NCBI GenBank assembly: GCA_964469995.1
Contig: CAYYAC010000001.1
Coordinates: forward strand, 1-38,127
DNA length: 38,127 nucleotides
Reading direction: 5' to 3'
Origin: an uncultured Gammaproteobacteria bacterium
Lineage (GTDB): Bacteria > Patescibacteriota > Microgenomatia > Levybacterales > UBA12049
Numbering within the stretch: position 1 is the stretch's first letter; each line of letters opens with the position of its first letter. The position numbers and the translations under genes were made by a program. Under the pieces are notes generated by a model. That model worked only from the letters and a program-made list of their open reading frames with translations, was not told where the DNA came from and did no database searches. This document shows, piece after piece, positions 12,911 through 33,099 of this stretch.

Positions 12911-13617
12911 AGTTATCCATAATTATTCCCGTTTTCAACGAAGAAAAAACAATTCAGAAAGTTCTCCAAAGAGTCATAGAGGTTAAAATACCAGGTGTAG
13001 TAAAAGAAATAATTGTTGTAGATGATGGTTCATCGGATAAAACAGCAGATAATATCCGTAGCGCAAAACTTAAAGAAATTAAATTTATAGAACACAGTGA
13101 AAATATGGGTAAGGGAGCTGCAGTAAAAACAGGCATAGAAAATGCAACAGGAGATTATATAGTAATTCAAGATGCTGATTTGGAATATGACCCTCAAGAT
13201 CTGATAAAACTAATGGAAGAGATATTGCAGGGAAGAGCAAAAGTTGTATACGGAACAAGGCTTAATCGTTTGCCTAACTTTTCCAGAGACGAAAGAAAGC
13301 CTCTTTTTATAGTTCATTACTTTGGTAATAGGTTTTTAAGTCTATTAACAAGTGTCTTATATGGCCAATGGCTTACGGATATGGAAACTTGTTATAAACT
13401 TTTTCCGGCAGTCGCAGTAAGGGGAATGAATCTTAAATCAAGAAGATTTGATTTTGAGCCTGAAATTACAACAAAGCTTTTAAAAAAAGGGTATAAAATC
13501 AAAGAAATTCCAATTACTACAAATCCGCGAGGATATGACGAAGGCAAAAAACTCCATGCGATTAAAGATGGAACAATTGCTCTTTTGACACTTATTAAAT
13601 ATAGATTTGTTGACTAA
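12907..13617 (+). CDS. GT2 glycosyltransferase, Dpm1-like polyprenyl-phosphate sugar synthase candidate
   Basis: Motifs MKLSIIIPVFNEEKTI, IIVVDDGSSDKT, NMGKGAAVKTG, IQDADLEYDP, TDMETCYKLF and FDFEPEIT. ATGA overlap with the upstream gene. A polytopic membrane gene follows directly. Confidence 0.7.
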   Translation: MKLSIIIPVFNEEKTIQKVLQRVIEVKIPGVVKEIIVVDDGSSDKTADNIRSAKLKEIKFIEHSENMGKGAAVKTGIENATGDYIVIQDADLEYDPQDLIKLMEEILQGRAKVVYGTRLNRLPNFSRDERKPLFIVHYFGNRFLSLLTSVLYGQWLTDMETCYKLFPAVAVRGMNLKSRRFDFEPEITTKLLKKGYKIKEIPITTNPRGYDEGKKLHAIKDGTIALLTLIKYRFVD

Positions 13618-13619
13618 TT

Positions 13620-14846
13620 ATGAAGAGTATAAAACTTGATTCAATTCTTCTTTTTGCGCTCCTTGTTCCTTTTATAATGAATTATAGGTTGAGTCCAGGA
13701 AATACTCCTTTTTGGCTTTTTGGATTGATATTTTCAGGACTTTTGGCATATATCTCGCTTGATATTTTATCTTTGAAAGAAAAAATTAAATTCAATTTAA
13801 AAAACATTTTATTGGTATTTCTTATTGCAGCGAGTATAGGAGCGGCGTCATATTCTGCGATTGTTGTAAGGCATCAGACTTCACCAATTTATAACATACA
13901 TGATATTATCCTTCAGCAGGAAGCTGCAATACGTTTTCTTCTTCATGGTAAAAATCCCTATGCTGTAACATATTTTGGAACACCAATGGAAAAATGGAAT
14001 TATTCTACAACAGAAATTAATCCTGCTCTATACCATTTTGTTATGCAGCCTTTTTATCTTCTTTTTGCGGTACCTTTTTATTTGATATTTGCTCATGGAG
14101 TAGGATTTTTTGATGGAAGAATTCCTCTAATGTTTTTATTCTTTTCTCTTCTTGCGTTGGCTTGGTATTTTATTAAAGATAAGCAGAAGAAACTTGAATT
14201 TGTAATTCTTTTGGCTTTCAATCCAGCAACGCTAGGTTATCTTATGGAAGGGCGAGATGACATATTTATGTTTGCTTTCTTTTTTGCTAGCTTAGTGCTT
14301 TTATATAAAAGGAAAAATTTATTATCTGCAGTTTTGATGGCTCTTGCTTTTACAGTTAAGCAGTCTGTATGGCCAATATTCCCTTTTTATTTTGCATATC
14401 TTTATTTTCAAAATAAAAACATAAAAGAGACAATAAAAGAGATTATTCCCTTTGCGATAACGTTTTCTTTAATAGTTTTACCATTTATATTTTGGAACCC
14501 AAAAGCTTTTTTTGATAGTACTATATTTTTTCTTTCAGGAAACGCAATGCATAGTTATCCAATTTCGGGGTACGGATTTGGAATGGTTCTAAGTCAGATA
14601 GGTATTATAAAAAATGTTCATTCGTATTTTCCATTTTGGATTCCACAGGTTTTAATTTGTTTGCCACTGGCAGCAACGCTTGTTATTTGGCAAAAAAAAC
14701 ACAATACAATTTTTAGACTCATTTGTTCTTATGGTTTTTTTCTTTTTGTATTTTGGTATTTTTCAAGATATTTTAATAATAGTCATCTGGGGTATTTGAC
14801 TATGGTATTTATCGTTGCTTATTTCTGGCCAAAAGAAGAAGTTTAA
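13620..14846 (+). CDS. Polytopic membrane protein, GT87/DUF2029-like GT-C candidate
   Basis: 408 aa with about 10 or more hydrophobic helices. It has the early loop motif IHDIILQQEAAIRFLLHGKNPY (acidic residue ... NPY) and EGRDDIFMFAFFFASLVLLYKRK...FTVKQ. It is paralogous to the CDS at 28743 (SFDIFNY...HENPY; SGHNDIFMMFLAI...FVKY). Confidence 0.6.
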   Translation: MKSIKLDSILLFALLVPFIMNYRLSPGNTPFWLFGLIFSGLLAYISLDILSLKEKIKFNLKNILLVFLIAASIGAASYSAIVVRHQTSPIYNIHDIILQQEAAIRFLLHGKNPYAVTYFGTPMEKWNYSTTEINPALYHFVMQPFYLLFAVPFYLIFAHGVGFFDGRIPLMFLFFSLLALAWYFIKDKQKKLEFVILLAFNPATLGYLMEGRDDIFMFAFFFASLVLLYKRKNLLSAVLMALAFTVKQSVWPIFPFYFAYLYFQNKNIKETIKEIIPFAITFSLIVLPFIFWNPKAFFDSTIFFLSGNAMHSYPISGYGFGMVLSQIGIIKNVHSYFPFWIPQVLICLPLAATLVIWQKKHNTIFRLICSYGFFLFVFWYFSRYFNNSHLGYLTMVFIVAYFWPKEEV

Positions 14847-16594
14847 TAGATAGGTCCTATCGAGTTTTTTATCTGAGTAATAGTTCCCATATTGCAATCA
14901 TTTGTTTGTTTTATGCATTCAATTGTCATATTCTTACTTCCTAAGTCTTTTATTTTTACGCTGTATCCGTCTCCAGTTAGGGTTATTATTCCTTCTTCTT
15001 CTTTTACAGTCCAGTGCTCCGGGTAAAAAAATCTATGAGAGCCAAGTGAAAATTCCTTTTTAAAGTTTGAGCCAAGATAATGTTGATAGACAGTCTTGTA
15101 GATAGGTTCGTAAGCTGGGACAAGAGACGTTTTTTGTTTTAATAAGTCAAGGGTTTGAGGAGTTTCGGAACTTTTTGTATAGAAAGCAATAATCTTAAAT
15201 TGAGTAATTTTATCTTGAGGACTTTGCCTAAGTTGAGTGTCAAGATTTGTTATATCTTTGTCTTGTATGTTTCCATAGAGCATTTTTCCAAGAGGCTGAT
15301 ATCCAAGCATATAATCAAGAGGAATAAATCCAGAAAGAAATTCTTCATCAATATTTTTAACCTGGGCATTTTTAGTTGTTTCTCTAAATGTTGATCCATA
15401 ATCCCCATATAATTTCCCTTGCATATTTAGGAAATTAAAAAAAGCATTGTTAAAAATCAAAGAGGTGCATACAAGTGTTAAAAAAACAATTAATCCAATA
15501 GCTTTAAAGGCGTACTGCTTTTTGGCAATTAGATATTCAAAGGGCATAGAAAGAAACATAAAAAGTAACGGAAGTATGATTATGTAATAATGCATGAAAG
15601 TATCAATTTTTAGAAGAAAATATATAAAAGGTAGAATGATTGAGGAATACGCAAAAAAAGAAAACTTCTTAAACTTCTTTATAAAAAGAAAAATTCCTAT
15701 TGGCAAAAGAATATATTCAAGATAGAACAAATTTCTCATTTTATATGCCAATGAAAAATCTTGAGAAAATGCTGTTATGCTGTCTCCCATTTCAAAACGG
15801 AAGTCTCCTTGAGATAGTATTTGAAAAGGCCTTTGGAAAATTTCCATATGATGAGTATTCAATTTTCCTCCGCTTGATAGGAAAGTTGTACAATCTGGGC
15901 ATTTATTTATAGCCTCATAGTTTACGTACGGTATTAGGGGGATAATGCCTATTACCGTGCCGATTAGAATATATTTTAAATTTAGTTTTACTTTGCTTAA
16001 TAAAAGAAATAAGCTTATTAAGAATATAAAAATTATGCTTGTTTGATGTAGCTGTATTAAGAAGAAAGAAGAAGCAAAATATAAAATCCAAAACTTCTGG
16101 TTTTTATCTATTAATAATTTATGAATAGATAGAAACAAAAGAACAAAAAAAGGAACAAGCAAATCCTGCATCCAGATTTTACGTGAATATATAATTGCCC
16201 AGGGGGAAATTGCCATAAAGACCGCAGTAATAAAGCCAAGCGTTTTTGAATAATAGCGTTGAATTATCAAAAAAAGAGCTGATATTGAAATAACATTCAA
16301 AAGAGCTATTAGGAAAGATATAAATCTTGGATCTTTAGAGATTAAGGCCATGGGTAGAAGTAAATAATTAAAAAGTGGAGGGTTTAGTATTCCAATACTC
16401 GAAACTGTTCCTCCTGGAGGGAAAGGGTGGTTAAATATCGGTCTGAAAGCAAGAAATAAATTTATTGCTTCGTCGGTTTTAAATTCTATTAAATCTAGGT
16501 TTGATATTCTGAAAACTGCTGCAAGTAAAAATACAAATAAGACCAAAAAACGATTGGATATTAGAGTTTTTTTGATTTTTTCTATTGTTAGCAT
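14843..16594 (-). CDS. PMT_2/ArnT-like (GT39/GT83-type) GT-C membrane glycosyltransferase with long soluble C-terminal domain
   Basis: 583 aa. Motifs LIEFKTDEAINLFLA (DE motif after TM1), GILNPPLFNYLL and ISPWAIIYSRKIWMQD. The N-terminal two thirds are polytopic and the last ~190 aa are non-hydrophobic. It is the only large gene on the minus strand. Confidence 0.75.
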   Translation of the reverse strand: MLTIEKIKKTLISNRFLVLFVFLLAAVFRISNLDLIEFKTDEAINLFLAFRPIFNHPFPPGGTVSSIGILNPPLFNYLLLPMALISKDPRFISFLIALLNVISISALFLIIQRYYSKTLGFITAVFMAISPWAIIYSRKIWMQDLLVPFFVLLFLSIHKLLIDKNQKFWILYFASSFFLIQLHQTSIIFIFLISLFLLLSKVKLNLKYILIGTVIGIIPLIPYVNYEAINKCPDCTTFLSSGGKLNTHHMEIFQRPFQILSQGDFRFEMGDSITAFSQDFSLAYKMRNLFYLEYILLPIGIFLFIKKFKKFSFFAYSSIILPFIYFLLKIDTFMHYYIIILPLLFMFLSMPFEYLIAKKQYAFKAIGLIVFLTLVCTSLIFNNAFFNFLNMQGKLYGDYGSTFRETTKNAQVKNIDEEFLSGFIPLDYMLGYQPLGKMLYGNIQDKDITNLDTQLRQSPQDKITQFKIIAFYTKSSETPQTLDLLKQKTSLVPAYEPIYKTVYQHYLGSNFKKEFSLGSHRFFYPEHWTVKEEEGIITLTGDGYSVKIKDLGSKNMTIECIKQTNDCNMGTITQIKNSIGPIY

Positions 16595-16611
16595 AACCTA
16601 TTTAAGTGAGC

Positions 16612-16617
16612 TATAAT
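16612..16617 (+). promoter_or_regulatory. Consensus -10 hexamer TATAAT upstream of the family-A gene at 16652
   Basis: A perfect TATAAT lies 35 nt upstream of the ATG. No convincing -35 and no TG extension. Confidence 0.2.
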
Positions 16618-16623
16618 AAACTT

Positions 16624-16652
16624 ATTGTAGAGATTTCTAGTGTCTTTATCAA
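16624..16652 (-). promoter_or_regulatory. Putative promoter for the minus-strand PMT_2-like gene (-35 TTGATA, 17-nt spacer, -10 TACAAT)
   Basis: Read on the minus strand: TTGATA (16652-16647), a 17-nt spacer, then TACAAT (16629-16624), with the ATG at 16594 about 29 nt downstream. Hexamer matching only. Confidence 0.3.
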
Positions 16653-18280
16653 TGAAGAAATTATTAAATTGGAGAGTCATATTTATCGTAGGAGTTCTTT
16701 CTGTTTTTTTGTTTCCCTTATTCCACTTTGGAATTTATATTACTCATGATGGAGAAGCGAATATTGCAAGATTCGCAGCATACTTTAAAGCATTTTCAGA
16801 TTTACAATTTCCTCCCCGTTGGGCAGGAGATCTAAATTTTGGATACGGTTCCCCTGTTTTTATATTTTATTATCCTTTGCCCGGATATATCTCATCTGCC
16901 CTGCATTTATTTGGAATTAGTTTCGCTGACACATTTAAGATTATCATGGGAGTTTCTTTTATTTTAAATGGATTGTTTTTCTATCTTTGGTCCAAGAAAA
17001 TATTCAGGAAAGATGTTGCTTTGATAACATCAATTATATATGCATTCTCTCCCTACCATCTACTAGATATGTATGTTAGAGGAGATGTAGCTGAAATACT
17101 AGCGCTATCTATTATTCCCCTTGTCTTTCTATCTATAGAAAAATTTATAGAAAAAAAAGGTTATCTTTGGCTTTTGAGAGGAGGATTTTTTTATGCATTG
17201 TTAATCCTTTCACACAATGGGATCAGTCTTACTTTTACTCCTCTTTTTATTATCTATTGTTTCTTTAGAGCCAAAAATATGAAAATACTTTTTAACCTGT
17301 CTTTGATTTTTATACTAGGACTTTGTCTCTCGGCATTTTTTTGGATACCTGCGATAATGGAATCTAGCTTTGTGAACGCAAAGCTTTTTATAGGAGATAA
17401 TTTTAAGAGCAATTTTCTTAATTTTAATCAGATTGTTTTTTCAAAATGGGGCTTTGGCCCTGATGTAAATAGTCCCGGAGGTTTAGCTCCTCAGATAGGG
17501 ATAGTGTACATATCGAGTTTAATAATTAGCTCTCTGATATTTTTAAGAAATTTAAAAAAAGAAAGATTGTTTGGTTTCTGGATTTGTGCATTCATAGTAA
17601 CTATTTTCATGACTACGTCTTATTCATTTATTTTTTGGAAAAATATAAATACGCTGAAGTTACTGGAGTTTCCATGGAGGTTTATTGCGGTTGCTAGCTT
17701 TACTGCGTCAGCAGCAATAGGATACCTGCTCAATTTAACAAAGAATAAAATAATTTTGTTTTCTGTTCTTCTTGTTTTTCTAATTTCTGTTGTACCTTTT
17801 ATAAAAACTGAAGATTATGAAATAAAATCTGATAGTTTTTATAATGAATATCCATATACTACCTATTTTCATGGAGAAGCGAGTTCTGTTTGGACCGCAG
17901 GAGATTTTTCCGAAAATGCGAAAAATCAATTTGAAGTTATTTCAGGCAGGGCTAAAATCTTAAACATAAATAAAAAATCAGCCTTGCACACTTTTTTAAT
18001 AGATGCAGACAACAATACTAGAATTCTAGATAATACTGTTTATTTTCCCGGGTGGAGAGTAAGCATTGATAATAAAAAAGTTCCAATTGAGTTTCAAGAT
18101 ATAAACCACAGAGGACTTATTACTTTTAGTGTTCCAGAAGGAAAACATTTAATTAACATTAGGTTTGAAGAATCCTTACTAAGGTTGCTTGCTGATATTA
18201 TTAGTGTTGTAGCGCTTATACTATTTATATTGGGGTTTGTATTTAGAAAGAAAATAAAAAATTTCTTTAATAAACTATGA
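16652..18280 (+). CDS. Family-A polytopic membrane protein, putative GT-C-like glycosyltransferase
   Basis: Motifs ITHDGEANIARF, PPRWAGDLNFGYG, SPYHLLDMYVRGDVAE, ILSHN, SAFFWIPAIMES, EFPWRFI and C-terminal NTVYFPGWRVSIDNKKVPIEF...EGKHLINIRF plus a final TM helix. I prefer the ATG at 16652 over the track's GTG at 16640. Confidence 0.8.
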   Translation: MKKLLNWRVIFIVGVLSVFLFPLFHFGIYITHDGEANIARFAAYFKAFSDLQFPPRWAGDLNFGYGSPVFIFYYPLPGYISSALHLFGISFADTFKIIMGVSFILNGLFFYLWSKKIFRKDVALITSIIYAFSPYHLLDMYVRGDVAEILALSIIPLVFLSIEKFIEKKGYLWLLRGGFFYALLILSHNGISLTFTPLFIIYCFFRAKNMKILFNLSLIFILGLCLSAFFWIPAIMESSFVNAKLFIGDNFKSNFLNFNQIVFSKWGFGPDVNSPGGLAPQIGIVYISSLIISSLIFLRNLKKERLFGFWICAFIVTIFMTTSYSFIFWKNINTLKLLEFPWRFIAVASFTASAAIGYLLNLTKNKIILFSVLLVFLISVVPFIKTEDYEIKSDSFYNEYPYTTYFHGEASSVWTAGDFSENAKNQFEVISGRAKILNINKKSALHTFLIDADNNTRILDNTVYFPGWRVSIDNKKVPIEFQDINHRGLITFSVPEGKHLINIRFEESLLRLLADIISVVALILFILGFVFRKKIKNFFNKL

Positions 18281-19944
18281 AAAAACAGCACGTTATATTT
18301 TTGTCTATATTCTTGGTTGGATTATTCTTGAGATTTTATAGGTTGGGAGATATTCCCGTAGGACTGCACAGAGATGAAGCATTCTTTGGATACAATGCAT
18401 ACTCTATTCTTCATACTGCAAAGGACATGAGCGGTAATTTTCTTCCTTTGCATTTGCAGTCTTTCTTGTTTAGTCCCGCAGGGTATTCTTATTTATCTGT
18501 TCCATTTATTTTTCTTTTTGATTTGAGTTCTTTTTCTGTTCGTTTTGCATCTGCTCTGTTTGGCAGTTTGATGGTTTTGCTCTGTTATTTTCTGTCTCTG
18601 GAGATATTTGCAAACAACAGAAACAAAGAGAGCATCGGATTGCTTAGCGCATTATGCCTCGCCGTATCTCCATGGAATATAAATTTAGCAAGAACAGCAA
18701 CAGAAAGTACGGTAGTGGTGTTTTTTATAACTCTAGCGACACTTATTTTTATAAAGGGTTTTAAAAATAAAAAATTTTATTTACTTTTTATTTCTTTTGT
18801 TTTTTATTTTCTTACGCTTTTTATATATCAGGCTCCAAGAGCTTTTCTTCCTATTTTTATTCCTGTTATTTTGGTCTTTTCGCTTACCAAAATTAAGGAA
18901 ATTAAAAACAATTTAAAACTTTTGTTTCTATTTTTATGCCTAATTATTCTTCCTGTGGTTTTGATAGTTTTTTCAAATGAATTATCTCTTAGAATAAGAA
19001 CATTAAGCGTTTTTTCCAATAGTCATGCCAGTTCATCAATTCAAGAATACATAAGTACAGATGGGATAAGTTCTGTAAATACCATATTTACTAGAGTTTT
19101 TCATAATAAAATTGAAGCGTACTCAGCAGAGGTAATTAAAAATTACTTTAAGCATTTTTCATATGATTTTCTTTTTACAGACAGCGGTCTGCCTGATAGA
19201 TATAGAATTCCATCAATGGGAATAATGTATGTCTTTGATTTACCTCTATTGTTGTTTGGAATTTGGAAAATCATTGGCAGAAAGCAAAAATCAGAATTGT
19301 TTCTTTTGATATGGATTGCCCTTGCTCCAATAGGCAGTGCCCTCACATTTGATGATATTCCAAATTTGCAGAGAACTTTGATTGTTTTCCCCGCGCTGTC
19401 TATGGTAATTGGAGTTGGGGCATTTTATCTTATTTCTTATTTACTAAATTATAGAAATACAGGTAAGTATGTTTTACTTGGTTTATTATTTATTGTTTTT
19501 TATTCATTTGGTTTCTATATTCACCAATACTACGTGCATGCTTCAGCTTACAACCCTTGGTATAGGCAAGATGGATATAAGCAATTAGTTGCAAGGGTAA
19601 ATAATTTTTTACCTGGATACAGCAGGGCTGTTATAACAAATAGAGAATCTGCTCCGTCTGTATTTTTTCTTTTTTATCTAAAGTACAGCCCATCTAAATT
19701 TCAAAAAGAGTCAGCAATGTCAAACAAAAATACTTCCGATAGTACTTCTTTTGATAAATTCTATTTTTCAGAGGAAGAATGTCCCTTTGGCTCTGCAGAC
19801 ATAAAACCCATTGTCCCTCCTCAAAAGAATGTTTTATATGTAAATAGCGGGAATTGTAAAGCTCCACAAAATGCTAAGATATTGGATATAATTAAAAGAA
19901 CAGACGGATCAGAGGCATTTGAGATACTTTCTTTAAATGAATAA
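18277..19944 (+). CDS. PMT/ArnT-like (GT39/GT83-type) GT-C membrane glycosyltransferase, tandem copy 1
   Basis: 555 aa. Motifs LHRDEAFFGYNAYS (DE motif in the first loop) and VSPWNINLARTATES. Polytopic core plus a ~130-aa soluble C-terminus (FFLFYLKYSPSKFQ). ATGA overlap upstream. Confidence 0.8.
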   Translation: MKKQHVIFLSIFLVGLFLRFYRLGDIPVGLHRDEAFFGYNAYSILHTAKDMSGNFLPLHLQSFLFSPAGYSYLSVPFIFLFDLSSFSVRFASALFGSLMVLLCYFLSLEIFANNRNKESIGLLSALCLAVSPWNINLARTATESTVVVFFITLATLIFIKGFKNKKFYLLFISFVFYFLTLFIYQAPRAFLPIFIPVILVFSLTKIKEIKNNLKLLFLFLCLIILPVVLIVFSNELSLRIRTLSVFSNSHASSSIQEYISTDGISSVNTIFTRVFHNKIEAYSAEVIKNYFKHFSYDFLFTDSGLPDRYRIPSMGIMYVFDLPLLLFGIWKIIGRKQKSELFLLIWIALAPIGSALTFDDIPNLQRTLIVFPALSMVIGVGAFYLISYLLNYRNTGKYVLLGLLFIVFYSFGFYIHQYYVHASAYNPWYRQDGYKQLVARVNNFLPGYSRAVITNRESAPSVFFLFYLKYSPSKFQKESAMSNKNTSDSTSFDKFYFSEEECPFGSADIKPIVPPQKNVLYVNSGNCKAPQNAKILDIIKRTDGSEAFEILSLNE

Positions 19945-21577
19945 AATTCTTAATTGGAAATTTTTACTTATTCTCTTTGTAGCAGTTTTTTTGCGTTTTT
20001 ATCAGCTTGGAATAAATCCTCCATCTTTGACTTGGGACGAGGCTTCCTGGGGATACAACGCATATTCTTTGGGAATTGATGGAAAAGATGAATTTGGAAG
20101 ATTTCTCCCGCATGATTTCTTAGAATCATTTGGAGATTTTAAGCCACCAATGTACGCATATTTAGATACCTTTCCTGTAAAAATGTTTGGCTTAAATGAA
20201 TTTTCAACAAGATTCCCATCTGCATTTTTTGGAGTTTTAACTGTAATTTTTACATATTTTTTAACAAAGAACATATTTTACAAATCGGAAAATAGAAACA
20301 AATATGCTCTTTTTGCATCTTTTGTTCTTGCGATATCTCCCTGGCATATAATGCTTTCAAGAGCCGCTTTTGAAGCAAATGTTGCCACCTTTTTCCTTGT
20401 GTTTGGGGTATTTTCTTTTCTTGAGGGGATTCAAAGTAAAAAATGGTTTCTTATTTTATCTGCAATCTCATTTACTCTGTCTATGTATACTTTTAATACC
20501 GCAAGAATCATTGCTCCGCTTTTGGTAATTATATTAGCGGCAGGTTTTAGAAAAGAATTGATTAGATGCAGAAAAGAAACAATAATAGCAATTATTATAG
20601 GGGTTGTGTTAATTTTGCCTACAGCAAAATTTTTACTTTCTCCTCAGGCGGGGCTTAGGTTTAAGGAAGTAAACATATTTTCAGATTCGGGAGCTATAGA
20701 TACTTCAAATACGGAAATAGCAAATGATAACAATAATTTAGTTTCCAAAGTTTTGCACAATAGGAGGTTTATATATGCATCAAGTTTTGTTAATCATTAT
20801 TTTGATAATTTAAGTCCGAGCTTTCTTTTTATAAAAGGGGATGGAAATCCAAAATTTTCAACTCAGAATGTGGGTCAGATGTATCTTTGGGATTTGCCAT
20901 TTTTTATTGCGGGCATTTTATTTATTTTCAAAAAAAGAGAAGGAGCTTGGTGGATTATTCCGTTATGGCTTCTTGTTGCAATAATTCCAGCTGCAACTGC
21001 AAGAGAGACGCCCCATGCGCTGAGAGTTGAAGCTGCTTTGCCCATGTTTCAGATTATGACTGCAGTTGGGATTGTTATATTTTTGAATTTCATAAAGAGC
21101 GTAATTTCAAAAGCGAACGCAAGGACTATAATTTTTGGATTAACATTTTTCTTTCTTTTATTTAATTTTGCATATTTTTACCATGAATATTTAACATATT
21201 ATCCTCAAGAATTTTCAGGAGAGTGGCAATATGGATATAGAGATTCAATTAACTACATTTTAGTAAATCAAAATAAATACGATCAGATTAATATTACAAC
21301 AGAGTTAGGCAGACCTTATATATATTATCTTTTTTACGAAAAGACAAATCCTATAATTTTTAGAAAAAGTGCGCAAATTACAAGAGATTCTTTTGGGTTT
21401 GTTTCCGTAAATGGATTTGGAAAATATAAATTTGCTCAAAATTTGGGAGATATTAAGAATCCGAGCAAAAAAATACTGTATATAAATATCCCTAAAAATA
21501 CTCCTTCAAAAGCAAACATAATTAAAAACTTTTACTTGCTTAACGGGGGAATATCTTTACAGGCTTATACTTTGTGA
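19937..21577 (+). CDS. PMT/ArnT-like GT-C membrane glycosyltransferase, tandem copy 2
   Basis: 546 aa. Motifs LTWDEASWGYNAYS, ISPWHIMLSRAAFEAN, PHALRVEAALPMFQI and C-terminal YIYYLFYEKTNP. ATGAATAA overlap upstream. Confidence 0.8.
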   Translation: MNKILNWKFLLILFVAVFLRFYQLGINPPSLTWDEASWGYNAYSLGIDGKDEFGRFLPHDFLESFGDFKPPMYAYLDTFPVKMFGLNEFSTRFPSAFFGVLTVIFTYFLTKNIFYKSENRNKYALFASFVLAISPWHIMLSRAAFEANVATFFLVFGVFSFLEGIQSKKWFLILSAISFTLSMYTFNTARIIAPLLVIILAAGFRKELIRCRKETIIAIIIGVVLILPTAKFLLSPQAGLRFKEVNIFSDSGAIDTSNTEIANDNNNLVSKVLHNRRFIYASSFVNHYFDNLSPSFLFIKGDGNPKFSTQNVGQMYLWDLPFFIAGILFIFKKREGAWWIIPLWLLVAIIPAATARETPHALRVEAALPMFQIMTAVGIVIFLNFIKSVISKANARTIIFGLTFFFLLFNFAYFYHEYLTYYPQEFSGEWQYGYRDSINYILVNQNKYDQINITTELGRPYIYYLFYEKTNPIIFRKSAQITRDSFGFVSVNGFGKYKFAQNLGDIKNPSKKILYINIPKNTPSKANIIKNFYLLNGGISLQAYTL

Positions 21578-21578
21578 T

Positions 21579-23243
21579 ATGAATAAGAAAGCGTTTTTAC
21601 TTTTATTGTTAGTAATCTTTGCAGGAGCAATTCTAAGATTTTGGCAATTGGGAAAAGTTCCCATATCCCCAGATTGGGATGAAGTTGCCCTTGGATATAA
21701 TGCATATTCAATGATGCAAACAGGAAGAGATGAATATGGAAAATTTCTCCCTATTGTTATGCGTTCTTTTGATGATTATAAGCCTGCTCTATATTCTTAT
21801 ATTGCAATTCCATCGGTTGCCATTTTTGGGCTAAATGTTTTTGCCGTAAGACTTCCTTCTGCTATTTTTGGCATTTTGACAATTATCGCAGTCTACTTCT
21901 TACTAAGAGAGCTTTTTGGTAAAAAGGGTTTAAAAATTGAAGCAAAGGGTTTTATCTTTGATATCCCAATTGTGGGAGCTTTTCTTTTAGCAATTTCTCC
22001 TTGGCATATTCAGTTTTCAAGAATTGCATTTGAATCTAATATTGGACTTTCTTTCAATATATTTGCCGCCTTATTTTTTATCAAAGGATTAAAAAAACCT
22101 TGGTTACTTTCACTTTCTACTGTTTTTGCTGCTCTGTCGATATATGTTTATCAAAGTGAAAAAGTCTTTACTCCGTTATTTTTTCTGGCCTTGGTGATTA
22201 TTTATTCAAAGGGATTACTTTCAAAACCTAAAAAATATATAATTTCCGCGACAATTTTTGGATTCATTCTTATTATTCCAATGCTTTTTTATACGCTTGG
22301 AAACTCAAATGCCTTAGAAAGGGCAAAGGGGGTAAGTATTTTTTCCGGTAGTACTCAGCTTCTGGCTCAAGATACAAAAAGATTGCTTTTAGATAGTAAA
22401 AATCATGATTTTTTAGGCTTGGTCTTAGATAACAGAAGGATTATGTTTACAAAAGAAATTATTAGCGGATATTTATCACACTTTGATTTTAATTGGCTCT
22501 TTATAACTGGAGACATTTCTCGTCATCACGCACCTAGCATGGGGCTTTTATATCTACTTGAATTGCCATTTTTACTCATTGGGATTTATTTTCTCATATT
22601 TGGTCCATTTGACAGAAAAACTAAAATTTTTATATTTGCGTGGTTTCTGATTGTTCCAATTCCTGCTTCAATTACGACAGGAGTCCCTCATGCGGTAAGG
22701 ACTCTTAATTTTCTGCCAACGTTTCAGATATTTACGGCAATAGGAATAGTTATTTCGGTAATTTTTATAAAAAGATTTAAATATTATCCTATTCTTTTCA
22801 TCATATTTATTTTTATATTTGGGTTTAATTTTTTATATTTCTTAGATCAATATTTTATTCAGCAGAATTATTTTAATGCTAAGGATTGGCAATATGGATA
22901 TGAGAAGATTGTGCCAAAGATACAAAAAATATCGAAAAATTATAAAAAGATTATAGTGTCAAACCAAGCTCCAATGGACCAATCGTACATGTTTTTTCTT
23001 TTTTACATGAAATATTCTCCTAAGCTTTATCAAACTGAAAGCATTAATGCTTCGGGTGGTTTTAGAGAGAATCATTCTTTCTCTAATTTTGAATTTAGAC
23101 CAATAAAATGGCGGGAAGATCAAAAATTGTCAAACACTTTGTTTATTGGACGCCCAGATGATTTTTCTGGCTCTGTCAGCTCTATTTCTAGTGTCAATTA
23201 TCCAAATGGAGAAGGAGCAATGAAACTTGTTGAGGTAAAATGA
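21579..23243 (+). CDS. PMT/ArnT-like GT-C membrane glycosyltransferase, tandem copy 3
   Basis: 554 aa. Motifs PDWDEVALGYNAYS, ISPWHIQFSRIAFESN, PHAVRTLNFLPTFQI and C-terminal SYMFFLFYMKYSPKLYQ and FSNFEFRPIKW. Confidence 0.8.
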   Translation: MNKKAFLLLLLVIFAGAILRFWQLGKVPISPDWDEVALGYNAYSMMQTGRDEYGKFLPIVMRSFDDYKPALYSYIAIPSVAIFGLNVFAVRLPSAIFGILTIIAVYFLLRELFGKKGLKIEAKGFIFDIPIVGAFLLAISPWHIQFSRIAFESNIGLSFNIFAALFFIKGLKKPWLLSLSTVFAALSIYVYQSEKVFTPLFFLALVIIYSKGLLSKPKKYIISATIFGFILIIPMLFYTLGNSNALERAKGVSIFSGSTQLLAQDTKRLLLDSKNHDFLGLVLDNRRIMFTKEIISGYLSHFDFNWLFITGDISRHHAPSMGLLYLLELPFLLIGIYFLIFGPFDRKTKIFIFAWFLIVPIPASITTGVPHAVRTLNFLPTFQIFTAIGIVISVIFIKRFKYYPILFIIFIFIFGFNFLYFLDQYFIQQNYFNAKDWQYGYEKIVPKIQKISKNYKKIIVSNQAPMDQSYMFFLFYMKYSPKLYQTESINASGGFRENHSFSNFEFRPIKWREDQKLSNTLFIGRPDDFSGSVSSISSVNYPNGEGAMKLVEVK

Positions 23244-24880
23244 GTAAAATCTCTTTATATTTGCTTTTAATAGTTTTAATTGCTTTTGTTTTTAGGTTAT
23301 ATCAAATCTCCAGCGTACCTCCCAGCGCTTCATTAGATGAAGCAACTATCGGGTGGAATGCCTATTCAATTCTAAATACAGGAGCAGACGAGTATGGATA
23401 CAAATTTCCTATTCTTCTTAGGGCATATGATGATTGGAGGCCTGCGCTCTATGTCTATTTAGTTTTGCCGTTTGTTAAACTTTTGGGACTGGGCATTTTG
23501 TCCGTAAGACTTCCTTCAGTTATTTTGGGAACAATCTCTGTTCTTGGTACCTATTTTTTGATAATGGAGCTTTTTATCAAATATAAATACAGAGATTATC
23601 TTGCTCTTTTATCATCTTTTTTTCTTGCTATTTCTCCTTGGAGTATTTATATTTCCCGGCTAGGACATGAAGCCAATGCAGGATTTGCATTTGGTATTTT
23701 ATCTGTATTCTTCTTTTTAAAATTCAAAAATACCTTAGGTAGAATTAATATCTATCTTGCTTCTTTATTTTTTGCTTTATCTTTTTATGCATATCAATCT
23801 GAAAAAATATTTATTCCCTCTATTGTTATACTGCTTGCACTGCTGTTTAGGAGAGAGCTTCTAAAAAGAAAAAAAGATATAATTTTTGCATTTATTCTGG
23901 GTTTTATTATTTTAATACCTGTCTTGAAAGAGACACTTTCTCCAAACGGCCTCATAAGGCTTAAGGGTACAACTGCGTTTGATATTACAAGAGCAGAATA
24001 TGTACAGGCTGCAACAGAAAGACTCAAGGCAAGGAATGATAAAAATTTCATAGCGGAGCTTATTAATAATAATAGGATAATAACGTCAGAAATTTTTATT
24101 GGGAATTATATTTCACACTTTAATCCCTTGTGGCTTTTTTCAAATTATGGATTGGAAGATTTTAAAGTTCCTGGAATGGGACTTATGTTCTTGTTTGAAA
24201 TTCCATTAATGTTAATAGGAATTGCATATTTATTTTTTGGAAATTTTGATAAAAAAATAAAAATCTTAATTGGAGTATGGATACTTATTTCCCCCGTTGC
24301 TAGTTCTATATCAACAGGTGCTCCGCAGGCAATGAGATTTTATATTGTACTTCCTACCTTTCAAATAATTTCCTCTCTTGGTCTTTTGTATTTGATAAGC
24401 TTAGCTAAGAAAGATTCTACAAGAAAAACCATTTTTTCTTTAACTATTGGAGTAATGGTTTCAAGTATCGTATTCCTCATAAATCAATATTTTATTGAGT
24501 TTCCAAAGCAAAATTCTTCCTCTTTTCAATATGCAATTTCAAACGCAATGGGTTTTATAATTAAGAATGAAGATAAATACAAAAAGATTGTAATCTCTAA
24601 TAGAAAAAACTTAAACCAATCTTATATGTTTCTGCTATTCTATTCTAAGTATGACCCAATTTTATATCAGAAGCAGGGAGGTACAAAATCCGCTGGATTT
24701 GAAGCAACTCACAGATTTTCAAATTTTGAATTCAGAGCTTTAAATTGGTCAAATGATAAATATGCAAAGAATACTTTATTTATTGCAAATACTTCATCTA
24801 TTCCAAAAGGGGAAAAAGCACTAAAGATATTTGCAAATCTTAATAACCAGGGGGTAATAGAAGTAATATGGAAAAAATGA
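23240..24880 (+). CDS. PMT/ArnT-like GT-C membrane glycosyltransferase, tandem copy 4
   Basis: 546 aa. Motifs ASLDEATIGWNAYS, ISPWSIYISRLGHEAN, PQAMRFYIVLPTFQI and C-terminal SYMFLLFYSKYDPILYQ and FSNFEFRALNW. Copy 3 is its closest relative. ATGA overlap upstream. Confidence 0.8.
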   Translation: MSKISLYLLLIVLIAFVFRLYQISSVPPSASLDEATIGWNAYSILNTGADEYGYKFPILLRAYDDWRPALYVYLVLPFVKLLGLGILSVRLPSVILGTISVLGTYFLIMELFIKYKYRDYLALLSSFFLAISPWSIYISRLGHEANAGFAFGILSVFFFLKFKNTLGRINIYLASLFFALSFYAYQSEKIFIPSIVILLALLFRRELLKRKKDIIFAFILGFIILIPVLKETLSPNGLIRLKGTTAFDITRAEYVQAATERLKARNDKNFIAELINNNRIITSEIFIGNYISHFNPLWLFSNYGLEDFKVPGMGLMFLFEIPLMLIGIAYLFFGNFDKKIKILIGVWILISPVASSISTGAPQAMRFYIVLPTFQIISSLGLLYLISLAKKDSTRKTIFSLTIGVMVSSIVFLINQYFIEFPKQNSSSFQYAISNAMGFIIKNEDKYKKIVISNRKNLNQSYMFLLFYSKYDPILYQKQGGTKSAGFEATHRFSNFEFRALNWSNDKYAKNTLFIANTSSIPKGEKALKIFANLNNQGVIEVIWKK

Positions 24881-26514
24881 AATCAAAATTATTTTTTATT
24901 CTAGTTTTACTATTAGGATTTATGGTTATCCTAGATTTATTCCACGCAGGTCTTCCCATAACTCATGATGGTCAGGATCATGTTGCTAGAATTGCAAATT
25001 TTTATACATCCTTAGCAGAGGGAAATATTATTCCAAGATGGGCAGGGAATCTAAATTGGGGGTATGGTCATCCAATTTTAGAATTTCTTTATCCCTTGCC
25101 ATCATATACTGCTTCTTTCTTCCATTTTGTAGGTTTTTCTTTGATAGATTCGGTTAAATTTGTATTTGGTCTTGGAATTATTTTATCCGGAATTTTTATG
25201 TTTGTCTGGCTAGCTGAATTTCTAGGACCTGAAGCATCTTTGGTAGGAAGTATTTTGTATATGCTCGCGCCTTATAGATTGGTTGATCTTTATGTAAGAG
25301 GTGATATCGGTGAAAATCTTGCCTTTGCTTTTATGCCATTTGCCCTATATTTTATTCTTAAGCTTAGCAGGAAAGTAAAAGCTCACTATATTTTAGCAGT
25401 AGCATCCGGAATCGCCTTACTAATACTTTCCCATAACGCTATAAGTTTGATTTTTATGCCCTTTATTGTTTTTTATGGATTGTTTATTGGTTTTTATACA
25501 AAAGAAAAGAAAAGATATTTTCTAAACTTTGCTTTTAGTGTTGTTCTTGGACTTGGATTGTCTGCATTTTTTTGGATACCTGGACTTCTAGAAGCAAAAT
25601 ATACGTTAAGAAATATTGTCACAAAGGGCGGATATCTTGCAAACTTTGTTAATCTTGAGTCAATTTTTTATGGACCATGGAATTATGGAATATCTGGTCA
25701 ATTCACTGTTCAGTATGGAATTATGCAATGGTTATTTATAATTATCTCTCCGTTTGTTGTCATATATCTTAAATTGAAAAAAAATAAAGATTTGATTATT
25801 TTATATTCTTTAATAATTTATTTACTTCTTGCGACTTTTATAATGTTTCCTCAGTCTAATTTTATATGGAGCAGATTTATTATTTTACAAAACTTTCAAT
25901 TTCCCTGGAGGTTTCTTGGAATAATTGTTTTTTCTTCTTCTTTTATTGCAGCTTTAGTTTATTCTAAAATGCCAAACAAAATTCAAAAATATGCAATTGT
26001 ACTTTTTATTATTTTGTTTTTGCTTTTGAATAAAGATTATTGGCACGCAAGCGGTTATTCTCAGAAGCCAGAGCAATTTTTTACCGGTATTTATAATTCA
26101 ACAACAGACACAGGAGAAAGTTCTCCAATTTGGTCAATAAGATTTATGGAGAAAAGGCCGATTGTTCCAATGGAAGTAATAGGAGGAAAGGGAACTGTAG
26201 TGGAAACTTTAAGAAGATCTACTTTGCATTCATATAAAATAGAAGCTTTAGACAAAGTTCAGCTCAGAGAAAATACTGTTTATTTTCCTGGGTGGGAAGT
26301 AAGAGTAGATGGAAAAACAGTTCCAATTGAATTTCAAAGCGGAGTAAACAGAGGAGTTATTACCTTTTTTGTAGAAAGAGGAAAGCATAGTGTTGATGTA
26401 GTATATACTGAAACAAGGCTCAGATTTATTTCAGATTTGATAAGTGCTGGTTCACTTTTCATGATTTTGATTTATAATATCTGGAGCATTAAATTATGGC
26501 GAAAATTTCTGTAG
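24868..26514 (+). CDS. Family-A polytopic membrane protein, putative GT-C-like glycosyltransferase
   Basis: Motifs ITHDGQDHVARI, IPRWAGNLNWGYG, APYRLVDLYVRGDIGE, ILSHN, SAFFWIPGLLEA, FQFPWRFL and NTVYFPGWEVRVDGKTVPIEF...RGKHSVDVVY. An in-frame ATG at 24877 would instead give an ATGA overlap with the upstream stop. Confidence 0.8.
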   Translation: MEKMKSKLFFILVLLLGFMVILDLFHAGLPITHDGQDHVARIANFYTSLAEGNIIPRWAGNLNWGYGHPILEFLYPLPSYTASFFHFVGFSLIDSVKFVFGLGIILSGIFMFVWLAEFLGPEASLVGSILYMLAPYRLVDLYVRGDIGENLAFAFMPFALYFILKLSRKVKAHYILAVASGIALLILSHNAISLIFMPFIVFYGLFIGFYTKEKKRYFLNFAFSVVLGLGLSAFFWIPGLLEAKYTLRNIVTKGGYLANFVNLESIFYGPWNYGISGQFTVQYGIMQWLFIIISPFVVIYLKLKKNKDLIILYSLIIYLLLATFIMFPQSNFIWSRFIILQNFQFPWRFLGIIVFSSSFIAALVYSKMPNKIQKYAIVLFIILFLLLNKDYWHASGYSQKPEQFFTGIYNSTTDTGESSPIWSIRFMEKRPIVPMEVIGGKGTVVETLRRSTLHSYKIEALDKVQLRENTVYFPGWEVRVDGKTVPIEFQSGVNRGVITFFVERGKHSVDVVYTETRLRFISDLISAGSLFMILIYNIWSIKLWRKFL

Positions 26515-27251
26515 TTTTAGCAACATATAATGAAGAGAAAAATCTTCCTGCTTGTCTGGATTCTGTAAAGAATTTTGCAGATGAAATAGTCATTGTAGAT
26601 GGAACTTCAAGTGATAATACAGTTGAGATAGCAAAAAGATATAAAGCTAGGGTTAAAATTGTAGAAAATCTTCAAAATTTCCACATAAATAAACAGAAGG
26701 CAATAGATATGGCAGCTTGTGATTGGATATTGCAGCTTGATGCAGATGAAAGAGTTTCTCCGGAATTACAATCTGAAATAAAATCAAAAATTAATGACGC
26801 AAAGCTTAATGGGTACTGGCTTCCTAGGAAGAATTGGTTTTTAGGAAGATTTTTAATGAAGGGAGGACAATATCCTGACTATACTTTGAGGCTTTATAGG
26901 AATGGCAAAGGCAGGCTTCCTCAAAAAGATGTACATGAGCAAGCAGTAGTCGAAGGAGAATTAGGATATTTAAAAAATCCTTTAATTCATATGGCTGACC
27001 CAGAGTTCGGAAGGTATTTCAAGAGATGGCAAAGATATACAGCATTTGCAGCAAAACAGCTAAAAGACGCTGGAATAAAATGGTACAACCCTATAATTGC
27101 CGTGAAACACTTATTTATTCTCCCTACTTGGTGGTTTCTTTTGACCTATGGAAGACATAAGGGCTTTATGGACGGCTGGCAGGGGTTTGTATTTTCTGCT
27201 TTCTCAGCTCTTAGATTTCCTGTATCATATATAAAGTATTTAGCATTATGA
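26496..27251 (+). CDS. GT2 glycosyltransferase, WaaE/KdtX-like subgroup
   Basis: Motifs MAKISVVLATYNEEKNLPACLDSVKNFADEIVIVDGTSSDNT, LDADERV, YPDYTLRLYRNG and a hydrophobic tail. It is the third paralog, after those at 3517 and 5329. Confidence 0.75.
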   Translation: MAKISVVLATYNEEKNLPACLDSVKNFADEIVIVDGTSSDNTVEIAKRYKARVKIVENLQNFHINKQKAIDMAACDWILQLDADERVSPELQSEIKSKINDAKLNGYWLPRKNWFLGRFLMKGGQYPDYTLRLYRNGKGRLPQKDVHEQAVVEGELGYLKNPLIHMADPEFGRYFKRWQRYTAFAAKQLKDAGIKWYNPIIAVKHLFILPTWWFLLTYGRHKGFMDGWQGFVFSAFSALRFPVSYIKYLAL

Positions 27252-28222
27252 AAATTTTAGTAACAGGCGGAGCGGGGTATATTGGAAGTTTTATGGTAAA
27301 ACGTCTTCTAGAAAGAGGAGATGAGGTTTTTATAATAGATAATTTATCTAGGGGGCATAAAGAAGCAATAGACAGCAGAGCCGCTCTTCTAGTGGGAGAT
27401 CTTCTTGATAAAAATTTTCTTTCAAGTGTTTTTTTAGAAAATAAATTTGATGCTATTGTTCATTTTGCGGGGTATATCTCAATGGGAGAGTCAGTAGAGA
27501 AGCCTTTTGAATATTTTAATAATAATGTTTTTGGATCATTGAATCTTATAAACCAAGCCAAGGAAAATAATTTGGATAATTTCATTTTTTCGTCTACCGC
27601 TGGAGTTTATGGAAATCCAATTCAAGTTCCTATAAAAGAAGATCACGAAAAAAATCCAACAAATCCATATGGTGAATCAAAACTTATGGTAGAAAAAATA
27701 CTTAGCTGGTTTAATAAAACTCACGGCTTATCTTTTACTGCTCTTAGATATTTTAATGCGGCAGGGGCAGCGCTTGATGGGACGTTAGGAGAAAATCATA
27801 ATCCCGAAACCCACATAATTCCAAATGCAATAAAAGCAGCATTGGAAAATAAGCCTTTTTCTCTTTTTGGAAATGACTATGATACGAAAGACGGTACATG
27901 CGTTAGAGATTATATTCATGTTTTAGACTTAGTTGAAGCTCATGTCCTTGCAATAGAAAAGATGAAAAAAGATAAGGGCGCATATTTCTATAATGTCGGT
28001 ACTGGAAATGGATATTCAAATAGAGAAATTTTGGAAATGATTAAAAAAGTATCAGGAATTGACTTTGAAATTAAAGAAGAAAACAGGAGGCCTGGGGATG
28101 CAAATGTTTTAATTGCAGACTCAACACTTATTAAAGATCAACTGGGTTTCTCTCCTAAATATTCTGACCTTGAGACAATAGTTAATACTGCATGGAAATG
28201 GCACTCCGGACAAAAACAATGA
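27248..28222 (+). CDS. galE: UDP-glucose (or UDP-hexose/HexNAc) 4-epimerase, SDR family
   Basis: 324 aa. Motifs MKILVTGGAGYIGS (Rossmann), FSSTAGVYG and PYGESK (YxxxK), with a GalE-like length and C-terminus. ATGA overlap upstream. Confidence 0.85.
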   Translation: MKILVTGGAGYIGSFMVKRLLERGDEVFIIDNLSRGHKEAIDSRAALLVGDLLDKNFLSSVFLENKFDAIVHFAGYISMGESVEKPFEYFNNNVFGSLNLINQAKENNLDNFIFSSTAGVYGNPIQVPIKEDHEKNPTNPYGESKLMVEKILSWFNKTHGLSFTALRYFNAAGAALDGTLGENHNPETHIIPNAIKAALENKPFSLFGNDYDTKDGTCVRDYIHVLDLVEAHVLAIEKMKKDKGAYFYNVGTGNGYSNREILEMIKKVSGIDFEIKEENRRPGDANVLIADSTLIKDQLGFSPKYSDLETIVNTAWKWHSGQKQ

Positions 28223-28746
28223 AACAAAAATTGCTTATAATTTTTGCCTTCCTATTTATTTTTCTTTACTCTTCAGCATCAAGCAACGCTAAATCTTCTT
28301 ATGTACTTCCTTATCCTTCTTCCATGCCGGGAAGTTTCTCTTACAAGCCCCATCTTTTGTTAGAAACCTTATCTAAGTATTGGTATTTTGGAAACTTTGG
28401 CCAATTTACATATAATCTTAAACAATCAGATAAATATTTGGTTGAAGCAAAAACGCTTTTTGAATATAACCAGTATTTATTAGGCTATAATGCTTTGCAA
28501 AAATCTGATTTATTTTTTAATCAAACTCTTCCAAACTTAGATAAAGCAAGAAAAGAAGGAAAAGATATATCTGAAAACTTAAAACTTTTAAAATCTGCTT
28601 CTGAAAAACACATAGAAGTTTTGATAAAGATTGGAGATGAGGTTCCGTCTAATTTTACATGGCAGCCTGAGAATGCTTCTGCATCTGTTTTGAATTTGAA
28701 ATCTTCTATAGAAAATTCAATTAAAATAAGAAAGAGTTACTTATGA
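28219..28746 (+). CDS. Secreted/envelope helical protein of unknown function
   Basis: The start at 28219 (ATGA overlap with the galE stop) gives the signal-peptide-like N-terminus MKQKLLIIFAFLFIFLYSSASSNA. The mature part begins SSYVLPYPSSMPGS and is rich in K/E/L (helical). It resembles a YxLPYPG-type N-terminal motif that I recall in many CPR hypothetical proteins. I cannot confirm the family identity. Confidence 0.6.
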   Translation: MKQKLLIIFAFLFIFLYSSASSNAKSSYVLPYPSSMPGSFSYKPHLLLETLSKYWYFGNFGQFTYNLKQSDKYLVEAKTLFEYNQYLLGYNALQKSDLFFNQTLPNLDKARKEGKDISENLKLLKSASEKHIEVLIKIGDEVPSNFTWQPENASASVLNLKSSIENSIKIRKSYL

Positions 28747-33089: not shown

Positions 33090-33099
33090 TATAAGCAAA

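Follow-up and report, generated by a model that had tools for sequence, protein, structure and literature searches.

An ancient array of paralogous genes for predicted PMT_2-family GT-C glycosyltransferases in a Candidatus Levybacteria glycan island

In Gram-positive bacteria, teichoic acids and wall polysaccharides are glycosylated by multi-component transmembrane systems, in which a GT-C glycosyltransferase of the PMT_2 family (GtlB, GttB, GtcC, YkcB, CsdD or CsdF) works with a GT-A enzyme and a flippase (PMC8035078). These systems have one GT-C per GT-A pair. In the mycobacterial and corynebacterial ensemble (EmbA/B/C, AftA-D, MptA/B, PimE and Pmt), many linkage-specific GT-C enzymes share a few polyprenyl-phosphate-sugar donors in making a surface glycan on the outer side of the membrane. 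Here we analyze positions 1 to 38,127 of contig CAYYAC010000001.1 (GenBank assembly GCA_964469995.1), a stretch of 38,127 nt referred to below as the window, in which six paralogous genes, P1 to P6, are predicted to encode GT-C glycosyltransferases of the PMT_2 family. The array belongs to a genome of Candidatus Levybacteria (Microgenomates, Candidate Phyla Radiation, CPR), and the window is one tightly packed plus-strand glycan island of at least 38 kb. We hold with moderate confidence that P1-P6 carry out non-redundant, linkage- or acceptor-specific steps of one conserved surface-glycan assembly line.

Four of the genes follow one another on the plus strand: P1 (18277-19944, 555 aa), P2 (19937-21577, 546 aa), P3 (21579-23243, 554 aa) and P4 (23240-24880, 546 aa), the successive junctions in the list of open reading frames (ORFs) being an 8-nt overlap, a 1-nt gap and a 4-nt overlap. 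P5 (31476-33089, plus strand, 537 aa) begins 8 nt inside the upstream gene Q3, and P6 (14843-16594, minus strand, 583 aa) is a more distant relative. All six are intact ORFs. The starts, lengths and spacing that an earlier reading of the letters alone (the initial annotation) gave for the quartet, along with its further copies at 31476 and on the minus strand at 14843, match the ORF list. The four genes are thus present as described, but framing them as a quartet is too narrow. They are flanked by two genes of another GT-C-like family, PTPS_related/YfhO-like: Q1 upstream (16640-18280, plus strand, 546 aa; PF10131, 56.8 bits), which overlaps P1 by 4 nt, and Q2 downstream (24868-26514, plus strand, 548 aa), which overlaps P4 by 13 nt. 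Positions 16640-26514 therefore hold six consecutive GT-C genes of ~545-555 aa from two families, with P1-P4 in the middle, and the island as a whole has about 15 GT-C genes.

At its 3' end, P6 converges on a plus-strand gene (13620-14846) with an overlap of 4 nt (14843-14846), while its 5' end is separated from position 16640 by a divergent gap of 45 nt with promoter-like hexamers on both strands, sites that are no commoner than in shuffled sequence. Across 14000-33500, the predicted sigma-70 promoters (84, versus 87.5 in shuffled sequence) and terminators (14, versus 11.3) showed no excess, so the scan is uninformative on operon structure.

All six copies exceed the gathering threshold of Pfam PMT_2 (PF13231; 26.1 bits), with 34.4, 50.6, 41.6, 33.2, 31.0 and 37.6 bits for P1 to P6, respectively. 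The Pfam protein mannosyltransferase (PMT) family (PF02366; threshold 22.7 bits) is reached by P2 (49.7 bits) and P1 (25.7 bits), with P5 just under it (22.0 bits) and no match for P3, P4 or P6; P1 is also above the GtrII Pfam cut-off (31.6 bits). None of the six has a Pfam match to MIR or PMT_4TMC, and oligosaccharyltransferase (OST) families do not appear among their Pfam matches. Since bacterial Pmts lack MIR as well, its absence excludes the eukaryotic PMT architecture alone.

Regular-expression searches found the DE pair in all six copies, 12-13 residues past the first transmembrane helix in each (at 33-34 in P1), and the motif [IVL][SN]PW.I..[SA]R likewise in six of six (VSPWNINLAR at 130 in P1), as the initial annotation had stated for the latter. 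Its other motif claims were too broad. The full loop-1 motif, ascribed to every copy, is confined to P1-P4, with P5 reading DEANQGYTVFS and P6 DEAINLFLAFR; P[HQ]A.R....LP.FQI, said to be kept by most copies, occurs in only three (P2, P3 and P4). Over 276 homologs, conservation reaches 99% for D34/E35 and R148, 96% for R91 and R374, and 94-96% for P141/W142. In yeast Pmt1 and in the Pmt proteins of M. tuberculosis and S. coelicolor, mutagenesis ties the DE pair and the loop-1 Arg to activity (PMC8698208).

The motif differences bear on whether some copies, above all P5 and P6, lack catalysis and serve the active enzymes as partners or scaffolds. Both deviate from G[YW]N[AV][YF]S in loop 1 and are without the PHA.R motif, and P6 ends in a C-terminal region of ~200 aa that is of a different kind. 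Yet both retain the DE pair and the SPW..SR motif, both genes are intact, and their orthologs are themselves conserved, and we regard inactivity as very unlikely.

Searching the PDB by sequence misses this family almost entirely, so that fold comparison was needed. An AlphaFold2 model of P3, made with 45 homologs, has a predicted local distance difference test score (pLDDT) of 86.9 and a predicted TM-score (pTM) of 0.87. Besides 11 long hydrophobic helices, it shows two large loops, at residues 22-86 and 242-327, and ends in an alpha/beta domain (~433-554). In a Foldseek comparison with the PDB, the top matches were all GT-C class A structures (E 6e-8 to 8e-6, probability 1.00, TM-score 0.47-0.54), namely human STT3, A. 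fulgidus AglB, C. metallidurans ArnT, C. lari PglB and C. thermophilum Pmt4; ALG9, Emb and Aft proteins followed as weaker matches, and Pmt1-Pmt2 structures were also found. STT3, AglB and PglB matched best (E 6e-8 to 5e-6) and have the GT-C class A membrane core in common with P3, but they carry a large OST-type C-terminal domain and are 685-864 aa long rather than ~550, and at 12-13% identity they share a fold with the array proteins, not family membership.

Loop charges were counted with the helix boundaries of the P3 model, because a crude Kyte-Doolittle helix prediction disagreed between copies. The short loops of P3 hold 17 Lys and Arg residues on the side of the N-terminus and 3 on the opposite side; across the family the means are 16.0 (inner) and 3.2 (outer), and every one of the 276 members has more on the inner side. 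The positive-inside rule therefore puts the N-terminus in the cytoplasm and the extracytoplasmic loops (EL) EL1, EL2, EL4 and EL5, together with the C-terminal domain, outside; the DE pair is thus placed outside, not in the cytoplasm, in all 276. The predicted architecture has 11 helices, with the DE pair in EL1, SPW..SR..E in EL2 and P.A.R in EL5 (between helices 9 and 10), all modeled as facing outward. A short beta-hairpin insertion (GKKGLKIEAKGFIFD; residues ~114-128, window 21918-21962) sits in the cytoplasmic loop that joins helices 2 and 3 of P3, and the other window copies are without it. With PMT_2 matches in all six and fold matches to STT3, AglB, ArnT, PglB and Pmt4, profile and model together indicate GT-C class A membrane glycosyltransferases of the PMT_2 family, in agreement with the PMT/ArnT-like GT-C identity first proposed.

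Among solved structures, ArnT (GT83; PDB 5EZM/5F15) gave the best profile match, and it is among the top fold matches, with the same GT-C class A fold (TM-score 0.51-0.54). ArnT also has a soluble C-terminal domain outside the membrane. The array enzymes might accordingly be ArnT-like and place sugars on membrane lipids or lipid-anchored molecules instead of polymers or proteins, a reading to which the matches to NCBIfam ArnT (PRK13279; E 3e-4 to 9e-4) and the weak ArnC matches of GT2 genes in the island would lend themselves. However, the ArnT matches amount to 18-20 bits against a cut-off of 567, the modeled helices number 11 and not the 13 of ArnT, and the window has no arnA, arnB or arnD-type genes and no arn operon context. 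The prevailing view is that CPR bacteria of this group have no lipid A. We judge an ArnT-like role to be highly improbable.

Pairwise BLAST aligns P1-P5 from end to end, with identities of 27-39% and E values from 1e-42 to 9e-129. The closest pair is P3/P4 (39%), as originally reported, and the motifs YQSEK[VI]F, SYMF[FL]LFY.KY.P.LYQ and FSNFEFR are exclusive to these two; P5 is 27-31% identical to P1-P4, while P6 aligns with the others across ~120-200 N-terminal residues only (E 1e-6 to 2e-3). No DNA repeats longer than ~30 nt were found between the copies. Such low identities without DNA repeats point neither to recent duplication nor to an assembly artifact, and near-identical artifact copies are ruled out.

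A scan of one genome per species returned at least 565 related stretches, the titles of related records naming Levy-, Gottesman-, Curtiss-, Woese-, Roizman- and Chisholmbacteria. We built a neighbor-joining tree (100 bootstraps) from 270 PMT_2-like ORFs of 82 loci and the six window copies. Five of the copies fall in orthogroups of their own, essentially single-copy per locus: P2, the most widely conserved (69 sequences, 68 loci, bootstrap 99), P3 (45 sequences, 44 loci, bootstrap 79), P4 (22 sequences, 21 loci, bootstrap 100), P1 (10 sequences, 9 loci, bootstrap 100) and P5 (4 sequences, 3 loci, bootstrap 100, a count limited by the 10-kb flanks). Gottesmanbacteria and Woesebacteria are taken in by the P2 and P4 orthogroups. 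P4 is sister to P3, and a clade of 79 sequences (bootstrap 77) includes both and no other window copy. The P3 orthologs are 56-70% identical in metagenome-assembled genomes (MAGs) named Candidatus Levybacteria or Levyibacteriota, where NCBI names them 'glycosyltransferase family 39 protein'; an exact-sequence look-up of P3 in the contig collection gave no match, and the comparative context was drawn from such orthologs. P6 has orthologs of 49-51% identity in the closest genomes (loci L003 and L005), there too on the minus strand.

Because the copies form single-copy orthogroups of their own across Microgenomates classes, they are an ancient set and, by the tree with database homologs, not a lineage-specific expansion. 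In sequence terms, the paralogs predate the divergence of several Microgenomates classes, and the claim that they are old stands with bootstrap support in several of these classes. The opposite view, that tandem expansion within one lineage produced the array recently or that it is an assembly artifact, with copies that are redundant or diversify fast, for example varying the surface to evade phage or host, could appeal to the head-to-tail genes of equal size and to the number of PMT_2-like genes per related locus, which ranges from 1 to 8. It is scarcely credible in the face of paralogs 27-39% identical without shared DNA repeats, of orthologs 40-70% identical elsewhere in bootstrap-supported single-copy orthogroups, and of a gene order kept across Microgenomates classes. 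For P1-P4, recent duplication or artifact is refuted by the identities, the orthogroups and the lack of DNA repeats.

In 61 of 68 loci, the gene after the P2 ortholog is P3 or P3-like, most commonly with a 4-nt overlap at the junction, and P2-P3 is a nearly universal, translationally coupled core pair. Other neighbors recur as well: Q1 orthologs precede P1 in 7 of 9 loci, P4 is followed by Q2 in 6 loci, and a gene designated D2 by Q3 in 16. Among loci of at least 20 kb, the median is four PMT_2-like and eight GT-C-like genes, with four or more PMT_2-like genes in 32 of 49, and a quartet is the norm within the Microgenomates clade examined.

The title 'uncultured Gammaproteobacteria bacterium' is given to many of the species-representative MAG records with the array (L007, L011, L012, L018, L036 and others, from binchicken or SRP co-assembly isolates), and one close homolog stands in a record titled 'Candidatus Pacearchaeota archaeon'. 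Such titles look like placeholder or mis-assigned taxon names.

The initial annotation had given each copy a C-terminal domain with its own sequence and had named this domain the likely specificity module. The first point does not hold, and the second is not supported. A hidden Markov model (HMM) made only from the C-termini of P3 orthologs finds the C-termini of P4 (E 1e-34), P2 (8e-19) and P1 (1.5e-15) over the whole domain, whereas P5, with a weakly recognizable domain, is at the margin (0.013) and P6 is missed; P1-P4 also have the motif FY.K..P..(Y/F)(Q/R) in common. Their C-termini are therefore one homologous domain. Searched against 1.84 billion proteins, its profile matched 2111 cluster representatives at E <=1e-3. 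In all but one of the 150 matches listed (the exception being a 667-aa protein), the domain is at the extreme C-terminus; the full-length proteins are ~530-585 aa long, and shorter entries look like fragments. This constant placement indicates a fixed part of the subfamily, not a mobile module. Folded alone, the domain is an alpha/beta structure of ~120 aa (pLDDT 87.6). No Pfam family matched it (only noise at E up to 10), and Foldseek found no significant neighbor in the PDB, the best being phosphoribosyltransferases (E 0.29, TM-score 0.27); a carbohydrate- or peptide-binding fold, for which the domain had been proposed to be inspected, is thus not assignable from either. It is a family-specific domain with no known fold match, newly found here.

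The distribution of conservation points elsewhere for specificity. Identity in the C-terminal domain is 0.40-0.46 within orthogroups and 0.23 between paralogs, about as weak as in the membrane helices, compared with 0.64-0.72 and 0.42 for EL1, 0.72-0.87 and 0.50 for EL2, and 0.69-0.93 and 0.26 for EL5. EL5 is the region that combines tight conservation within orthogroups with the greatest difference among paralogs. Orthogroup-specific positions, constant within each of the P2, P3 and P4 groups but different from group to group, number 12 in 174 outer-loop residues and 3 in 122 C-terminal residues; a strict search over four orthogroups gave 3 columns and the relaxed three-group search 19, small numbers that give a direction only. 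EL5 above all, together with the other loops of the catalytic face, offers better specificity candidates on these alignments than the C-terminal domain.

Beyond P1-P6, the island has nine likely GT-C genes that the initial annotation had missed: four PTPS_related, two long YfhO-family and three other polytopic proteins. Besides Q1 and Q2, the PTPS_related family includes Q3 (29855-31483, plus strand, 542 aa; PF10131, 65.9 bits), just upstream of P5, with a C-terminal similarity to PgfM1/PgfM2 (NCBIfam) far under the cut-off, and a fourth gene (4-1371) cut by the window start. Its members have a YfhO-like C-terminus with a C-terminal membrane anchor and the motifs THDGE..H..R, PRWA..LN.GYG, ILSHN and FPWRF. 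Aligned by hhalign, the PMT_2 and PTPS_related profiles match over their N-terminal ~185 columns (E 2.6e-5, probability 75%), which suggests that the two families are distantly related over this region. Most related loci have a Q2 ortholog downstream of the array. The sole notable DNA repeat in the array, a 70-nt stretch at 18028-18097, 26268-26337 and 31249-31318 (83% and 60% identity), encodes the PTPS_related C-terminal motif NT.YFPGW..(I/V)DGK, and it reflects protein conservation, not recent duplication.

The long YfhO-family proteins are encoded on the plus strand at 6062-8416 (784 aa, 83.9 bits) and 9739-11973 (744 aa, 76.5 bits); they are 33% identical and have a GT4 gene between them. 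Orthologs of the second precede the PMT_2 array in most related loci. The three polytopic proteins start at 13620, 28743 and 34139; those at 13620 and 28743 have orthologs with GT87 or MptA_B_family matches. Eight GT2, two GT4 and two Wzx-like genes, GalE and an RmlC-like cupin also belong to the island. Among the GT2 genes, a short one at 12907-13617 (plus strand) is a candidate for making the donor, matching AglJ (E 1e-34), PgfS (6e-21) and PpgS (8e-21) below the equivalog cut-offs. Similar short GT2 genes lie at 1328-2074 and 35836-36582, and the matches of the three to AglJ, PpgS, PgfS and ArnC range from E 1e-10 to 1e-34. The candidate flippases, of Wzx/MOP type, are at 2061-3515 (plus strand) and 36579-37853, with matches to Polysacc_synt_3 (173 bits) and Polysacc_synt (55 bits). 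The window scans, which covered ORFs of at least 180 aa, identified no GDP-mannose pathway gene; below that size, the sole ORFs of 100-180 aa are minus-strand ones within plus-strand genes.

Downstream of Q2 follow a GT2 glycosyltransferase (26496-27251, plus strand) and a UDP-glucose 4-epimerase, GalE (27248-28222, plus strand; TIGR01179, 414 bits against a cut-off of 262), an order that is syntenic with the array in loci L001 and L003 and resembles that of streptococcal PgfM1, PgfS and PgfE. Weak matches to PgfS come from the three short GT2 genes and from the GT2 gene at 11957, not from the one at 26496. The adjoining gene (28192-28746) encodes a 184-aa protein with a signal-peptide-like hydrophobic N-terminus and a weak DUF5667 match (E 0.01). 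In the same two loci, a 175-aa gene fills the equivalent position after the epimerase and before the MptA_B-like gene, and the 184-aa protein may be a conserved component of the island with an accessory or acceptor role.

This Pgf-like order is one of several features by which the paralogs might instead be protein O-glycosyltransferases of the PMT or Pgf/PgtC type, acting on Ser/Thr-rich S-layer, pilus or secreted proteins, with different paralogs or heterodimers such as P2-P3 serving different protein substrates. The Pgf enzymes glycosylate Ser/Thr-rich protein regions outside the cell. As in the GT39 PMTs, the array proteins have a DE pair and a conserved Arg in loop 1 and 11 helices, the topology of bacterial Pmt and not the 13 helices of ArnT; D34 and R91 are 57 residues apart, compared with 61 for D77 and R138 in yeast Pmt1. 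P1 and P2 pass the Pfam PMT threshold, Pmt4 and Pmt1-Pmt2 are among the fold matches, and the NCBI name of the orthologs points to family 39. Yeast PMTs are reported to work as obligate dimers, a possible parallel to the conserved P2-P3 pair. However, the array copies are without MIR and PMT_4TMC domains, P3, P4 and P6 give no PF02366 match, and all of P1-P4 have an extra C-terminal alpha/beta domain. Actinobacteria manage with one Pmt per genome, whereas a locus here typically has four to eight copies. With Wzx-like flippases, GT4s, numerous GT2s and GT87/MptA_B-like genes, the island has a gene content usual for polysaccharide assembly, and an obvious gene for a Ser/Thr-rich acceptor was not found in the window. 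On balance we consider protein O-glycosylation a live alternative, the foremost of the rivals, though less likely than surface-glycan assembly.

The surface-glycan assembly line that we prefer would work as follows. Short DPM1/GtrB-like GT2 enzymes would load a sugar onto polyprenyl phosphate in the cytoplasm, and the polyprenyl-phosphate-sugar donor would then be flipped across the membrane. Judging from the family, each GT-C would move one sugar from this donor to an acceptor outside the cell, the PMT_2 enzymes working alongside the interleaved PTPS_related/YfhO-like and GT87/MptA_B-like GT-C proteins. By analogy with mycobacterial arabinogalactan and lipoarabinomannan (LAM), or with Gram-positive multi-component transmembrane glycosylation, the acceptor would preferably be a cell-surface glycopolymer made by the same island. 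It is plausible that the copies share one chemistry and differ in acceptors or linkages. A line that assembles or decorates a polymer is favored by the presence of three donor-type GT2 genes for about 15 GT-C genes, together with the GT87/MptA_B-like, GT4, GT2 and Wzx genes.

The island resembles the Gram-positive systems in its PMT_2 family, its monoderm-type context, a catalytic face on the outside, and the co-location of GT2 donor candidates, flippase candidates and YfhO-family GT-C genes, a likeness to enzymes of the GtlB/YkcB/CsdD type that lies in Pfam family and gene context and not in direct sequence comparison. It differs from them in having about 15 GT-C genes to three DPM1/GtrB-like GT2 genes, in flippase candidates of Wzx rather than GtrA type, and in the family-specific C-terminal domain. 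The mycobacterial ensemble is similar in its GT87/MptA_B-like enzymes, which have counterparts among orthologs of the island's genes, and in the weaker Emb and Aft fold matches. Its subfamilies and phylum are different, however, its proteins are ~1000 aa or more in length as opposed to ~550 aa, and here the genes are in one island.

Several points weigh against the assembly line that we prefer. Donor sugars and acceptors are not readable from sequence, and the enzymatic roles are predictions from sequence and model. A PDB sequence search with the family profile returned ArnT only, at a marginal E of 0.27, and one with P2 alone gave chance matches only. All matches of the short GT2 genes to polyprenyl-phosphate-sugar synthases fall far under the equivalog cut-offs, and the scanned window ORFs of at least 180 aa included neither a GtrA-type flippase nor a Wzy polymerase nor a priming phosphoglycosyltransferase. 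The activity of P5 and P6 is less certain because they lack parts of the loop-1 motif, and the likeness of Q2, GT2 and GalE to the streptococcal Pgf cluster speaks for proteins as acceptors in some of the island at least.

A more far-reaching version, which we put forward as speculation and think improbable in full, is that Microgenomates, with their ~1-Mb genomes, build their main envelope glycan almost wholly outside the membrane by means of about 15 GT-C enzymes of three families. P2-P3 would be an obligate heterodimer at its core, like Pmt1-Pmt2 or EmbA-EmbB, and the C-terminal domain would have a fold not described before and serve to dock the growing polymer or a partner GT-C.

In the literature on glycosyltransferases (GT-C, GT39) of CPR, Patescibacteria and Levybacteria, we found no description of such arrays. 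The proteins themselves are already in databases under the automatic GT39 name, and their enzymology is expected to be conventional GT-C chemistry. What is new here is the orthogroup structure, the universal P2-P3 pair and the interleaving with a second GT-C family. The resulting orthogroup map defines targets, with P2-P3 as the universal pair and P1, P4, P5, P6 and the Q family as accessory members.

The uncultured CPR bacteria have very small genomes and are believed to live attached to other cells, and the array bears on the biology of their cell surfaces. At least 38 kb given to glycan assembly corresponds to ~4% of a genome of ~1 Mb (complete or near-complete relatives have 0.995-1.2 Mb). 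Together, about 15 outward-facing GT-C enzymes and an array core conserved across classes point to an elaborate, conserved surface glycan or glycoprotein coat.

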